Below, in pieces: positions 26,279 through 59,087 of a DNA stretch of 64,000 nucleotides (position 1 is the first letter of the stretch; each line of letters starts with the position of its first letter). The notes below the pieces were generated by a model. It worked only from the letters and a program-made list of their open reading frames with translations. It made no database searches and had not been told where the DNA came from. The stretch is from Candidatus Freyarchaeum deiterrae (GTDB lineage: Archaea > Asgardarchaeota > Jordiarchaeia > Jordiarchaeales > Jordiarchaeaceae). The stretch spans positions 3,392,001 to 3,456,000 of the forward strand of contig CP147778.1 in assembly GCA_037305845.1 (NCBI GenBank), in the 5' to 3' direction. The position numbers and the translations under genes are program-made.

Positions 26279-26704
26279 TTGCCTCATAGACCTTCGGGAG
26301 TGACAGTTCTAGGCACTTTTATGATTATTTTAGGAGTTATCACCATTATTTGTGAATTTCTTTTTGTGTGGCCGGGTTTGCCTTATATACCCGTTATTAT
26401 TTATGAAATTCCTGTTTTAGTGGGGGAGAATTTACAATCCAATATTCCGATATTTATTCTCGGTAGTACGCTTTTGGCCGGTGCAGTGGGTCTGCTCAGC
26501 ATGACTGGTTGGGGCTACTATCTAGCTTTGACTTCTTCAATTATTCTGATTGCAGACTCTGCCATTTCATTCTTACTCTTTATCGCATCACATTTCTTGA
26601 TCCCTATACTTAGCATAATATTTCCATGTGGCCTGATTCTTGGAATAGTAACTCTCGCTTACCTTCTCAGTAAAGCAAAGTACGAGTACCCCATAGAATC
26701 CTAA
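26279..26704 (+). CDS. RPxG-family membrane protein 1 (no RING)
   Basis: RPSGVTVLG...GLLSMTGWGYYLAL...YLLSKAKYEYPIES; TTG start after a GGAGG RBS. Confidence 0.8.
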   Translation: MPHRPSGVTVLGTFMIILGVITIICEFLFVWPGLPYIPVIIYEIPVLVGENLQSNIPIFILGSTLLAGAVGLLSMTGWGYYLALTSSIILIADSAISFLLFIASHFLIPILSIIFPCGLILGIVTLAYLLSKAKYEYPIES

Positions 26705-26921
26705 TTAGCAGGTACTCAAAATAGTTTCTTTAATTTGTTACTGATTAGCAGGGTTTCTGAAAGATTTCTGTTTGTGTTACAGCGTTTCCCTCTTTCGGTG
26801 TAAGTATTGACCTTTTATTTTTTGTGTATTTAATGCCTTTTTAGAAAATTATTTAAGAGATAAAATAAAATAAGAAGGAAGAAAGAACCCTCTTATGAGG
26901 ATGAATATGGGAGGAATGGAT

Positions 26922-27659
26922 TTGAGTTATAGACCTTCCGGAGTAGTAGTTATAGGGGTTTTCATGATTATTTTCGCAGTTTTAAACATTTTTTGGGCAA
27001 TTTTAATGATGCCTTTATCGGGTACAAGTTTGATTACGCTTTTTTCACCATTTACTTTAGGGGGATTATTGTCCTTTGGTTTGATGCTTACTACTAGTGT
27101 GATGCTCGTGGTTGGTGCGACTGGTCTGTTAAGCATGGCGCGTTGGGGCTACTATACCGGTTTAGCTGCTTCAATTGTTCTGATTGTATCCGCTGTTTTC
27201 TCTTTCTTTGTTGGGTTCGGATTCTTCTTAATTTCTATTGGTGGCTTAATTCTCGGAATAATAACTCTTACCTATCTCCTTACTGATGTAAAGTACGAGT
27301 ACCCAATAGACTTAAGGAGGGAGTACCCTGCAAGGTATGAATACCCCGAAAGGAGGAGGACGATGCCTGCCGCCAAGATTGTCAGCGTGCCAGAACCCAT
27401 TCCCGTCGCCATAAAGCCAAAACCAGATTGCCTGTACTGCGGCACCGAGATCCCCGAGGACGCCGAATTCTGCCCCCACTGCGGAGAGGCCAGGGTGAGA
27501 TGCCCAGTATGCAGCAAGGACATCGTTTCAGGAGACCGATTTGTAAAGTGCCCCTACTGCGGAGCCCTGAACCACAGAGAACACCTGCTAGAATGGATAA
27601 AGGTGAAAGGATACTGCCCAAATTGTAAGCGGAAATTAAAAGAAACAGACATCGCTTAA
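26922..27659 (+). CDS. RPxG-family membrane protein 2 with cytoplasmic zinc ribbon and RING-like finger
   Basis: RPSGVVVIG...MARWGYY...DVKYEYP, then CLYCG...CPVC-x12-CPYC-x4-HREHLLEWIKVKGYCPNCK. TTG at 26922 follows GGAGG (ORF open from 26895). Confidence 0.85.
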   Translation: MSYRPSGVVVIGVFMIIFAVLNIFWAILMMPLSGTSLITLFSPFTLGGLLSFGLMLTTSVMLVVGATGLLSMARWGYYTGLAASIVLIVSAVFSFFVGFGFFLISIGGLILGIITLTYLLTDVKYEYPIDLRREYPARYEYPERRRTMPAAKIVSVPEPIPVAIKPKPDCLYCGTEIPEDAEFCPHCGEARVRCPVCSKDIVSGDRFVKCPYCGALNHREHLLEWIKVKGYCPNCKRKLKETDIA

Positions 27660-27931
27660 AATCCCTTTCTATAACGAACAATTTTTTTCTCTGTTTGGGT
27701 TTTTAAAGGAAATCAATCAAACATATCACTCTAGTCCAACGGCTGGAAATATCCCAAAAATAAGATAAAACTCTAGCTGTATATATGAAACTAATCAGCG
27801 GTTTCTCCAAAATAATTTCTTAAATTAGGTTTCATTTTCTAAACCTTTTCTCACCTGTTTTGCCACTAATGAAATATTTTTATACTTAACAAAACTTAGC
27901 AAGGATAAAGAAATGTTGGGTGAGGATATAG

Positions 27932-28369
27932 ATGACTTCTAGACCGGGTGGTGTCACTGCATTAGCTGTGGTCTTATTCATTATTGGTGTGCTTTTGTTT
28001 AGCTTAGCGACATACATGGGGTTTTCGCTTGCCCTTTCAACGATTCTAACGGAGAATATACAAGCTATTGCACCCTTTTTATTTGGTGTGTTTTACATAC
28101 CATCAGGGCTTCCAGCAAACATTTTTTTTCTCTATGTTTATACATTTTTATATGTTGAATTTCAATTGAATTTTGGTGTCTATCAAATGCAGACTGTGGG
28201 AATAGATATTGTGGCGATGATATATGTCTTTGCGGCTATAGGTTTATTCCGAATGAAGAGGTGGGGACGTTACCTTGCATTGATATTTGGAGTTGTTATG
28301 ATTCCTGCATTATTCGGAATAGTGGTAGTAGTTTACCTTATGGGCAGTGTAAAATACGATTTCGAATAG
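27932..28369 (+). CDS. RPxG-family membrane protein 3
   Basis: MTSRPGGVTALA...GLFRMKRWGRYLAL...VKYDFE. Confidence 0.85.
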   Translation: MTSRPGGVTALAVVLFIIGVLLFSLATYMGFSLALSTILTENIQAIAPFLFGVFYIPSGLPANIFFLYVYTFLYVEFQLNFGVYQMQTVGIDIVAMIYVFAAIGLFRMKRWGRYLALIFGVVMIPALFGIVVVVYLMGSVKYDFE

Positions 28370-28564
28370 CTTAAGGCACCACCCCTTATTTTTTCCGAAC
28401 GTTTTGAAGAATTTCGTACTACGCTTTTTACTGGCGATGGTCACTTAAAAGTTGTAAATCGCCCTCAACAATAAACCGTATGCCAATTGGCATGTTCTAT
28501 GTATACTATTCATTGAATCAAAATAGAATTTCTCCTAACTTGGGTGTGTTTTGCTTTCTTTGAT

Positions 28565-56735: not shown

Positions 56736-57072
56736 CATTACTCCCCCAATATTTTTTGTTTTAGAAATGGTTCGAATTTTTTAGTCCGCATAGCATTCCG
56801 TTCCAGATAGTTATGCCTCATTAAAAATGCTTTAATAGTTAAATAATGCTTATCTCTTATTAAGCAAGATATACAGGGGGGAGGGGGTCTAAATGAGGAA
56901 ATACAGACCGAGAAATAAACGCAATAATCATACATAAAGTATCCAGAATTGTAGTTTGGTATCTACTCTGGATGATGCGGAAAAAAATTAGTTGGATAAC
57001 ATTCTTCTTCCATATATCAGTTGTAAACGATCTTTTTTAGTGGAACACTTTTTTTAGTAAATTAACTTGAAC

Positions 57073-57720
57073 TCATATGGATATTTTTTTTATAGCTTCT
57101 ATTCTTTCTTTTATTGTGAGTTCTGGTAAATCGAAGCTTCCATACTTGGTTACGTGTGGCAGGCTTTCCACTTTTACCTGAGCCAGTTTCGTTAGTGCGC
57201 TTATTGCAGGTTCTTTCTTTTCCATCCAGGTGACAGCGTACTTGTCGGCGTTAAGTTCCTGATTTCTTCCAACCTGTTCTTCCAATCCGGGGTATCCGCA
57301 TTCTTTTATCACAGCTCTAATGTCTTCCAGTATGGCTTCCGTCTCTAACAGATGGATTTGTGCCCATTTTGAGAGGAGCAGGTTGAATCCCGGCTTTTCA
57401 AATTCAGACAGGAAGTTGGCTCCTGAATCATTGTTTAGAATGTGATGTATTTCGTGGAGAACAATGTATTGAAGCTCCTCGGTGTCCAACTTTTTGTACA
57501 ATTGATCAGAGACGTAGATGGCACCGAGTGGCACACAGGATTCATAGAGTCCTCTAGAGAAGACTGGGGGGTCATTGGGCTCGGCGTTAAATCTTCTTCC
57601 CGAAAGCAGCTTCAAGGGACTATTAATGCATTCAAGATGAGCGTCGATAATGTTCTGGATAACCGGCTCACCCACGGAAGACTCTTCTATTCTATCCAAC
57701 AGCTCGGACATACACATCAC
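57073..57720 (-). CDS. M48/HtpX-like zinc metallopeptidase domain protein
   Basis: IYVSDQL, EELQYIVLHEIHH, QELNADKYA, ISALTKL, ERIEAI. Confidence 0.75.
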   Translation of the reverse strand: MMCMSELLDRIEESSVGEPVIQNIIDAHLECINSPLKLLSGRRFNAEPNDPPVFSRGLYESCVPLGAIYVSDQLYKKLDTEELQYIVLHEIHHILNNDSGANFLSEFEKPGFNLLLSKWAQIHLLETEAILEDIRAVIKECGYPGLEEQVGRNQELNADKYAVTWMEKKEPAISALTKLAQVKVESLPHVTKYGSFDLPELTIKERIEAIKKISI

Positions 57721-57826
57721 TACAACGACACGGTAAATAATCCTATTCTCTGAACTTCAACAATATTGGTCGAGGATATAAGTTAATCGCAAAAAATAAA
57801 AACACAAACACTTCAAACAATTAGAA

Positions 57827-58622
57827 AAAAAATATTTTTAATGCAACACGAATCCTGGGTAAATAAAGTTAAGGGAAATTTCAGAACTAAAAATCTTCAA
57901 AATCAGATACCACCTCCCAACGTAAATACGCTCTTAGTCTCTCAGAGCAATTGACAAATTTTTTGAAAGGTGAACATTACCAGTGAAAATCAAATTATAA
58001 TGAAGAATTCAGAACATTTGGGGAAAAAATTGAGGGGGGATTTTATCTCATTTCAAAATCCTCTTTTACCACACTGTACAGGTACACGACTATCATTATT
58101 CCAGCTGACACAATAAGTATACCACCAGTAAGAATAAATATCACTGATATGATGCCACCGATTATGAATAGTATTCCAACTATTATCCCGAGGTAGCGTC
58201 CCCATTGCTTTATTCTGAATAATCCAACAGCAGAAATAATTAGCAAGGGCACAGCGATCAAGCTAATCAGAACCCCTATGTACATAAAGGATAAGAAACT
58301 CATATTGCTGCTTATGATAGTACCAATTATGAAAGCTATAGTGATAGGTAAAATTTGGGCTAGCTCTGGCGGTAAACTAGCTGACAAAGAATATATCAAG
58401 GGGATTGAAAGGAGATTGACGAAGTTTGAGATTTGATACTGAGGTATAAATACAGCCTCGATAAAAATTGCTCCAATGACTCCCAGTGCGGCGAGAATTA
58501 TGAAGATTATAGCTAATGCAGTCACGCCATTTGGTCTAAATGCCATTTTATATCCCGCCCATATTTTTTATCATTATGAAGTGTTGTTTAGACATAAAAA
58601 CATTTTTGTGCGGGTAAACATT
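57827..58622 (-). repeat. Inverted segmental duplication, right copy
   Basis: Reverse complement aligns with 51590-52428; the terminal TATA has decayed to a T-run. Confidence 0.85.
58043..58546 (-). CDS. RPxG-family membrane protein 9
   Basis: MAFRPNGVTALA...GLFRIKQWGRYLG...VKEDFE. Confidence 0.85.
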   Translation of the reverse strand: MAFRPNGVTALAIIFIILAALGVIGAIFIEAVFIPQYQISNFVNLLSIPLIYSLSASLPPELAQILPITIAFIIGTIISSNMSFLSFMYIGVLISLIAVPLLIISAVGLFRIKQWGRYLGIIVGILFIIGGIISVIFILTGGILIVSAGIMIVVYLYSVVKEDFEMR

Positions 58623-58651
58623 GTAGAAAAAATTTGAAGGAAAAAATGTCT

Positions 58652-59087
58652 TTATTGAAACTCGTATTTTACGTCGCGCAAAAGGTACACCACTACCACT
58701 ATTCCAAATACTAATAGAATTATACTAACTATCAATAGTGATGAGCGCACTGTCCATAGTAATGAGAGCACACCGCCGATTATCATGAATACTAAGTATC
58801 AATGCGAGGGTACGTCCCCAGTTCATCATGTAGAGCAAGCCAATAGCAGTTACGGTATATATTGCCGCCACAATAATTGCACCCACCATCTCTAATTCAT
58901 AGATGCCCATGCTATTTCCATAACTAGTGCCTGACATAAATGTCCTACTGGAAAGCACCGCCCATTGAATGCTTAGCGCAGACATGTCTGTAATTACCAC
59001 GATTATTACGGTGATACTCACAACCACCCCAAAAATTATAAAAAATACAGCTAGTGCGATGACACCACCCGGTCTACCAGAAGACAT
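58652..59087 (-). pseudogene. RPxG-family membrane protein 10, frameshifted
   Basis: MSSGRPGGVIALA...WGRTLALIL, frameshift at ~58793, then VFMIIGG...VYLLRDVKYEFQ* in another frame. Confidence 0.85.

Follow-up and report, generated by a model that had tools for sequence, protein, structure and literature searches.

Genus-wide expansion of a DUF2127/DUF7144-like family of four-helix membrane proteins in the Asgard archaeon Candidatus Freyarchaeum deiterrae

Introduction

The closest described relatives of the membrane proteins analyzed here are DUF2127 (PF09900) and DUF7144 (PF23636), two uncharacterized families; in the literature searched, the first is named once in each of two papers and the second in none. 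Both share with our family four predicted transmembrane (TM) helices and the region around a GLxxxKxW[GA] motif; they differ in that most copies score below both Pfam gathering cut-offs (24.3 bits for DUF2127; 27 bits for DUF7144) and in the long hydrophobic TM1–TM2 hairpin of our family. Structurally, MS4A proteins (FcεRIβ/CD20) and tetraspanins (CD53, CD9, Tspan15) offer a looser comparison, being paralog-rich adaptor families with a four-TM bundle and, like our family, both termini probably inside. Whole-bundle alignments with them gave Z-scores of 9.0–10.5 and an rmsd of 3.3–4.2 Å over 112–124 residues at 7–13% identity, values within the range for any helical bundle and tied with those of soluble four-helix bundles; the likeness is best taken as analogy only. 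Furthermore, the large outer domain of our family lies between TM1 and TM2, not between TM3 and TM4 as in tetraspanins, and the tetraspanin CCG motif and disulfides are absent from it.

Two further systems resemble the locus in layout. Diversity-generating retroelements and integron cassette arrays likewise present constant–variable–constant genes in arrays; unlike the promoterless integron cassettes, however, each gene of our family has its own promoter, and no integrase-like ORF was seen within the window. Lastly, Prok-RING_1 (PF14446) tails occur on Asgard membrane proteins, including single-pass receptors of the present genome, from which the gene designated 26922 differs in that its predicted RING is attached to a short-looped module of four helices.

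Family membership and phyletic distribution

The window, a 64,000-nt stretch of contig CP147778.1 (3,392,001–3,456,000), belongs to the 3,576,204-bp genome of Ca. Freyarchaeum deiterrae, a soil Asgard archaeon; genes are designated by their window coordinates. A first-pass annotation had listed ten copies of a membrane family sharing RPxG, GLxxMKxW[GA]xYL and [VI]KxxF[EQK] motifs, all of which we confirmed (Table 1). An HMM matched these ten with E-values from 4e-55 to 1e-8 and brought in six more from other parts of the genome, about 16 altogether; the next match was at E 0.07. Freyarchaeum genomes contain 9–18 matches each, as against 0–4 in the other Asgard genomes searched, which bears out the earlier proposal of an expanded repertoire; copy number varies and the framework is constant. 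A family tree, built in a quick version, combines lineage-specific paralog clades with species-level ortholog groups.

DUF2127-like families had been named as the first Pfam candidates, and our searches support this kinship, with membership being marginal. At E≤0.01, DUF2127 matches 42 of 103 homologs and DUF7144 matches 21; among the window copies, 51681 is the only one to exceed the DUF2127 cut-off (28.2 bits), five others score 16–21 bits and four have no match. DUF7144 has no match in the Ca. F. deiterrae genome; its link to the family comes from the 21 homologs together with one Asgard homolog that does pass its cut-off. An Atlas search agrees with the DUF2127/DUF7144 kinship at lead level, and NCBIfam assigned no family to the 53072 and 26922 proteins. 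The family consists of DUF2127/DUF7144-like four-helix membrane proteins, expanded genus-wide.

Although all ten loci are present, two are not intact. In 58652, a 2-nt deletion near 58794 shifts the frame and leads to a stop at 58725 after 120 aa; an assembly error was rejected because the truncated product is present on 8 contigs. The copy called from a TTG at 52466, a start that overlaps the leader, has RRGG in place of RPxG and ATT at the homologous start (52481), and the latter marks it as weakly translated or decaying. Decayed family copies were found both here and in relatives.

Table 1. Features of the locus, in coordinates of the 64,000-nt window
Feature	Coordinates	Strand	Details
Family gene	26279..26704	+	Short loop, 19 aa; TTG start; C-terminus YEYP-IES; own variant promoter about 26169–26278
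Family gene	26922..27659	+	Short loop, 16 aa; four TM helices; Pro/Arg linker; zinc ribbon and RING tail
Zinc-ribbon and Prok-RING module	27429..27659	+	DNA 74–76% identical to tails of unrelated genes 21076–21693 and 21988–23961
TATA-like promoter motif, exact	27872..27884	+	Of the 27932 copy
Family gene	27932..28369	+	Long hairpin, 52 aa; TM3–TM4 shortened to 29 aa
Family gene	50977..51495	+	Long hairpin, 50 aa; promoter motif with one mismatch, about 50914
Inverted-duplication arm	51616..52427	+	Promoter, gene, spacer, next promoter; other arm 57828–58609; 72% identity overall
TATA-like promoter motif, exact	51620..51632	+	Of the 51681 copy
Family gene	51681..52205	+	Long hairpin, 55 aa
TATA-like promoter motif, exact	52418..52430	+	Of the 52481 copy
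Family gene	52481..52801	+	Short loop, 13 aa; shortened TM3–TM4; ATT at homologous start
Family gene	53072..53539	+	Long hairpin, 48 aa; promoter motif with one mismatch, about 53014
Membrane-anchored S8 subtilisin-like protease	53793..55907	-	Neighbor; cytoplasmic zinc ribbon
Family gene	56250..56735	+	Long hairpin, 51 aa; exact promoter motif at 56194
M48 metallopeptidase	57073..57720	-	Neighbor; marks the same locus in relatives
Family gene	58043..58546	-	Long hairpin, 56 aa; inverted duplicate of 51681; degenerate TATA
Frameshifted family copy	58652..59087	-	Lacks intact TM3–TM4 and C-terminal motif

Domain architecture and predicted topology

The segment between TM1 and the next TM helix had been described as variable in length and sequence. 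Variable it is, but it is not a flexible loop, and it falls into two length classes: it spans 13–19 or 47–56 aa in the measured copies and about 30 aa in the broken 58652, with a length of 20–39 aa in just 2 of 113 homologs. A second variable region, TM3–TM4 (29–57 aa), was missed in the first reading. In the long class, the segment is modeled as a nearly uncharged helical hairpin prolonging TM1 and TM2 outward (AlphaFold, pLDDT 96); the 53072 model comprises helices 6–54, 59–102, 106–129 and 133–147 with a continuous hairpin, and the short-loop 26922 was likewise modeled with four helices. Across 87 homologs the hairpin tip has a mean hydropathy of 0.89 and 5.5% charged residues; hairpin length (mostly 45–54 aa) and hydropathy are conserved. 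In most copies the predicted hairpin is rigid and combines a polar stalk with a hydrophobic band. The model, taken together with the positive-inside rule, suggests that the two termini face the cytoplasm, as do the three conserved motifs. Conserved catalytic or channel residues are absent from the four-helix module. Foldseek against the PDB returned nothing at E≤0.001 for either predicted model, VIA-align matched only generic hairpins and four-helix bundles, and the best hit of an Atlas fold search (TM 0.52) was uninformative.

Among homologs, the four-helix module is fused to HEAT repeats, RING, zinc ribbon or helical tails, and these exchangeable cytoplasmic tails are of the same kinds as those on single-pass surface proteins of Freyarchaeum. 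The single-pass surface proteins of this genome also carry a hydrophobic patch 11–18 residues outside the TM helix (p 4e-6 versus a control stretch), at an offset from the membrane similar to that of the hairpin band; the resemblance is one of hydropathy pattern, not of sequence homology. With its cytoplasmic face conserved, its outer hairpin variable and its tails exchangeable, the family would suit a role as non-enzymatic membrane adaptors or scaffolds, the likeliest of the readings considered, which we rate at about an even chance.

Promoters, terminators and duplication of the genes

Eight copies had been credited with their own promoter about 50 nt before the start. Enrichment in the family was confirmed, since the TATA-like motif with up to one mismatch precedes just 1.8% of about 2000 genes, but it is exact in only four copies, has one mismatch in two and two in 58652, is degenerate in 58043, and lies 56–63 nt upstream. 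The terminator-like tail was recovered as described, with CC..A+T5 matching 7 of 8 copies versus 4.6% of genes. A variant promoter does exist at 26279 and 26922, not as one shared element but as a separate copy before each gene (74% identity). The term 'self-contained cassettes' does not fit; these are ordinary monocistronic genes whose flanks were duplicated along with them, and no cassette machinery was found.

Retro-duplication was rejected because what was duplicated includes the TATA before the gene as well as 200 nt of sequence past the terminator. Segment comparison of 27932 and 52481 (84–87% identity in the 3' half, 60% in TM1) suggests mosaicism between paralogs, but a triplet test was non-significant after correction (best p 0.12). 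An Rfam search of window positions 50000–60000, spacers included, found no element. The same locus occurs in relatives with differing copy numbers, and the array looks like the outcome of ordinary duplication and loss, that is, gene-family birth and death.

Evolution of the TM1–TM2 segment

The claim of a hypervariable loop stood insofar as the outward TM1–TM2 segment is the fastest-evolving part of the protein (dN/dS 0.7–1.0 versus 0.47). Ongoing diversification was not supported: 14 contigs from independent runs show no differences within any intact family gene. We also rejected the array as a target of a diversity-generating retroelement, there being no reverse transcriptase (no RVT_1 match in the genome), no near-identical template repeat and no A-biased change, substitutions being unbiased.

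The lack of variation in the population, of a reverse transcriptase and of A-biased substitutions also counts against a diversifying surface-recognition repertoire, in which the hairpins would bind external ligands such as virus proteins or kin and partner cells under positive selection after duplication. With a synonymous rate shared across the gene, loop dN/dS is 1.40 versus 0.39 for the core, M2a outperforms M1a (p 1e-10), and the loop contains 10 of the 11 sites assigned to positive selection, a pattern that would fit a recognition arms race and that speaks against the adaptor reading. The 51681/58043 pair points the same way, with a loop dN of 0.59 versus a difference of about 0.2 in the non-coding flanks, as does one ortholog group with a loop dN/dS >2 on few changes. 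However, once the loop is given its own synonymous rate, dN/dS drops to 0.70 (MAFFT) or 0.96 (ungapped) and M2a loses significance (p 0.20 and 0.06); the positive class remained at its starting value of 2.0 in the codon site models, so the fits are approximate. The comparison with flanks is weakened by the fact that bacterial intergenic DNA is usually under stronger constraint than synonymous sites (10.1101/069708), as it is in the relatives compared here. The hairpin is also hydrophobic and has almost no charge, unlike most exposed binding loops. Among orthologs, loop dN/dS is 0.38 (95% CI 0.27–0.55), indicative of purifying selection, and in comparisons of paralogs its rate does not clearly exceed the neutral expectation, which goes halfway toward what the first-pass annotation itself had said would count against it. 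Positive selection on the loop is not established, and we consider a recognition repertoire unlikely; of the earlier 'surface-recognition or adaptor' proposal, the adaptor-like role is plausible.

We regard it as similarly improbable that these are structural envelope proteins expanded for dosage or by drift, with the hairpin as a hydrophobic spacer or anchor into an S-layer or other outer layer, its sequence mattering little and the paralogs being largely interchangeable. Near-neutral loop evolution between paralogs at conserved length and hydropathy, frequent pseudogenes, weak start codons and the hydrophobic patch common to surface proteins all favor such a role, whereas the purifying selection on ortholog loops, which are almost free of indels, the persistence of several paralogs across species, and RING and HEAT tails implying signaling or quality-control output in some members argue against it. 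Overall, this looks like ordinary birth and death yielding a set of membrane adaptors rather than like an antibody-like hypervariable system.

Neighboring proteases and the RING tail of 26922

The S8 protease gene also sits beside family genes at two further Freyarchaeum-like loci, and two relatives lack it in the array; the protease neighbors may simply reflect shared ancestry of the locus. A tetraspanin-like organizer layer, in which distinct hairpins would bind matching juxtamembrane patches of particular single-pass surface proteins (e.g. the S8 protease or RING-tailed receptors), in which positive selection would have driven the specificities apart and in which certain members would couple the complex to ubiquitin, appears to us quite improbable, more so than the two preceding alternatives.

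As had been noted, one copy carries a RING module: the 26922 tail passes Prok-RING_1 with 29.2 bits against a cut-off of 29.1 and has eight Cys/His zinc-ligand positions in a C4-H2-C2 pattern, with a Trp. The zinc-ribbon/RING module sits on many unrelated membrane proteins and on at least seven membrane proteins of this genome; the 26922 orthologs in four congeneric genomes end without it, and in one of these the gene immediately upstream of the ortholog is a different one with a RING tail, suggesting that the tail was grafted locally. Judged from sequence, the tail has been shuffled among many membrane proteins and, on this clade, was seen only at 26922, which makes 26922 unlikely as a hub for the other copies, which had been suggested to oligomerize with it or be its substrates. 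A ubiquitin system in which 26922 would act as the central E3, with the remaining copies as its co-receptors or substrates, is the least probable reading and very doubtful: the Prok-RING_1 match, three E2-family proteins encoded in the genome and an independent four-helix–RING fusion in another metagenome (P0076) favor it, but the tailless orthologs, the spread of the module and the position of this short-loop copy 23–31 kb from the main array tell against it.

Functional implications

The copies are paralogs of an old four-helix module that multiplied in Freyarchaeum through DNA-level duplication of single-gene units with promoter and terminator, with copies lost again through decay. Under the adaptor reading, and by analogy with MS4A proteins or tetraspanins, each paralog might act as a membrane adaptor or scaffold, its outer hairpin packing sideways on other envelope proteins and its conserved inner face docking a common cytoplasmic factor, while a tail, where present, could add an output such as ubiquitin ligation. 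After duplication, the hairpin would drift or re-specialize fast and then stay fixed within a lineage.

The present analysis describes for the first time the predicted structure and the evolution of an unstudied membrane family that has expanded across an Asgard archaeal genus. It points to an envelope feature, a hydrophobic band just outside the membrane, common to the hairpins and many single-pass surface proteins. If surface receptors and proteases do use these paralogs as adaptors, the family would constitute a prokaryotic parallel to the four-TM membrane organizers of eukaryotes.

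Family census and assignment

All ten loci assigned to the family in the first-pass annotation are present in the window and carry the motifs described. Within the complete Ca. Freyarchaeum deiterrae genome, which originates from wetland soil (one contig, 3,576,204 bp, GC 40.7%), a profile built from nine copies recovered these loci and six further members, 16 in total, well separated from background scores. Five of five other genomes of the genus gave 9-17 matches each, other genera of the order 1-4 and other Asgard genomes 0-4, these being match numbers rather than exact copy numbers. 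Five copies lie at the M48 peptidase-side locus in two relatives; a different metagenome contig has four there, and a fourth example has at least one. In the family tree, close species form tight ortholog groups, and some paralog pairs are private to F. deiterrae. The proposed expansion extends to all five congeners, and its process is birth-and-death evolution.

The suggested DUF2127 affinity found support in Pfam as a marginal membership, with one window copy above the cut-off and five below, and matches to DUF2127 in 42 and to DUF7144 in 21 of 103 homologs. Atlas look-alikes are consistent with this assignment, and we would class the family as a lineage-expanded form of the DUF2127/DUF7144 group; the literature searched describes no function for either.

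Features in the window and at related loci
Location	Strand	Feature
6309-6432	+	Unrelated LpxL-like acyltransferase gene (start MPSRPGGI); promoter, leader and first ~10 codons 77% identical to 59047-59171
12958-15470	+	106-aa N-terminal fragment of monofunctional catalase directly before catalase-peroxidase gene
21076-21693	-	Two-TM protein with the zinc-ribbon/RING tail of the RING copy; conserved Trp region replaced
26922-27659	+	RING copy
30746-34086	-	Amino-acid permease genes, tandem duplicates
44704-46962, 53793-55907		Single-pass surface proteins; Pro-hydrophobic patch-polar linker-TM-basic C-terminal layout, shared genome-wide
58652-59087		Frameshifted family copy
59047-59171	-	5' end of the frameshifted copy
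G000:C1:3469184-3469669 (this genome)	-	Another DUF2127-scoring protein, 13 kb past the window, without family motifs
L032:1909-7230 (congener)		Transposase-like ORFs, IS200/IS605-type by appearance, breaking up a family array
L039:13763-15196 (congener)	-	Beta-helix surface protein reading through into a family gene, later frameshifted

Promoters, start codons and damaged copies

Four of eight copies have an exact promoter motif, three a near-exact one and one a degenerate form. With one mismatch allowed, the motif precedes just 1.8% of genes; the T-rich tail follows 7/8 copies against 4.6% of genes. The 51681/58043 inverted duplication covers promoter, gene, 200-nt spacer and next promoter, so promoter and tail were duplicated together with the gene. 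What had been called self-contained cassettes do carry their own signals, but as monocistronic archaeal genes rather than mobile units. Judged by sequence, the acyltransferase gene at 6309 has apparently taken over a family promoter.

A 2-nt deletion near 58794 ends the product of the frameshifted copy after 120 aa; the identical truncated product recurs on eight contigs, so the frameshift is real. Where siblings have ATG, ATT stands in the copy called at 52466 and ATA in one from another Freyarchaeum-like array. Weak starts (TTG, GTG, ATT, ATA) are common (26279, 26922, 52481 and the second copy of L115, a relative's locus), and the frames stay open. Elsewhere in the window, the catalase-peroxidase gene (GC 50-59% versus 41%) looks like a replacement or acquisition.

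Structure and topology

Loop length is bimodal, and the long class is predicted to form a helical hairpin prolonging TM1 and TM2 rather than a loop: the AlphaFold model of the 53072 protein (pLDDT 96) has four helices, the first two of 49 and 44 residues. The model of the short-loop RING copy shows four ordinary helices followed by a disordered linker and the zinc domains. Across 87 long homologs, the hairpin comprises a polar stalk and a hydrophobic, almost uncharged tip, and the TM3-TM4 segment also varies (29 to 57 residues). Conserved Arg/Lys residues lie beside TM1, at the TM2-TM3 turn and at the C-terminus; by the positive-inside rule, which assigns membrane topology, we therefore infer that these flanks and fused tails are cytoplasmic and the hairpin external.

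Single-pass surface proteins of the genome bear a hydrophobic patch 11-18 residues outside the TM, seen in 56% of them against 8% for control stretches (p 4e-6). Its offset from the membrane resembles that of the hairpin band; the likeness is one of hydropathy pattern only. Their C-terminal layout is a possible signal for sorting or oligomerisation in Freyarchaeum; NCBIfam CTERM models matched neither of two such proteins examined.

Divergence of the outer segment

The loop is not hypervariable within the population: fourteen contigs from independent runs differ from the window at five positions altogether, none in an intact family gene, and even coverage is reported for the genome (PMC11529989). 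A genome search found no reverse transcriptase, no A-bias was seen among substitutions and intact family genes show no population variants, ruling out the family as a DGR target.

Between orthologs, dN/dS is 0.38 (0.27-0.55) for the loop and 0.29 for the core. Between paralogs the loop is the fastest part (51681/58043, 1.06, 0.5-2.3), and a 25-gene codon model with one synonymous rate gave 1.40 versus 0.39 with a significant positive class, as expected of a selected recognition repertoire. However, the loop's synonymous rate on paralog branches is 1.7-1.9 times the core's, and once it has its own rate dN/dS falls to 0.70 or 0.96 depending on alignment and the positive class loses significance (p 0.20, 0.06); we consider such a repertoire unlikely. 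Misalignment or inter-paralog exchange could explain both raised rates, and mosaicism between paralogs is suggested. Flanks of the 51681/58043 duplication diverge less (0.2) than the gene (dS 0.5), partly as expected because intergenic sites are usually constrained (10.1101/069708, on bacteria), as they also are in the relatives used for calibration. Overall, the supposedly hypervariable loop changes fast after duplication, under relaxed or episodic selection, and is fixed thereafter.

Exchangeable tails and functional implications

The tail of the 26922 copy passes Prok-RING_1, confirming its RING module, and three E2 genes are present in the genome. Yet the module forms the end of at least seven membrane proteins of this genome, two of them encoded no more than 6 kb away with 74-76% identity in DNA, and in four congeners the ortholog finishes with the YEY motif and lacks the module, making a system centred on this copy as hub very improbable. 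One congener has a separate RING-tailed gene directly upstream of the ortholog, and the sequences suggest that the fusion arose by local grafting. The RING of the 21076-21693 protein is possibly inactive. Since other homologs bear RING, HEAT, zinc-ribbon or helical tails, the four-helix unit serves as a membrane platform on which cytoplasmic domains are exchanged; the L039 read-through joins an ectodomain-TM to it.

Expansion, decay, a bimodal outer segment, tail exchange and invariance in the population are established for the family. By analogy it may function like MS4A proteins or tetraspanins, although it lacks tetraspanin hallmarks and its fold alignments to both (Z 9.0-10.5) score on a par with those to soluble four-helix bundles. 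Interchangeable structural envelope proteins are a doubtful alternative. Of the two roles first proposed, adaptor is preferred to surface recognition: plausibly, family members would be non-enzymatic adaptors or scaffolds whose outer hairpin selects lateral partners among envelope proteins.
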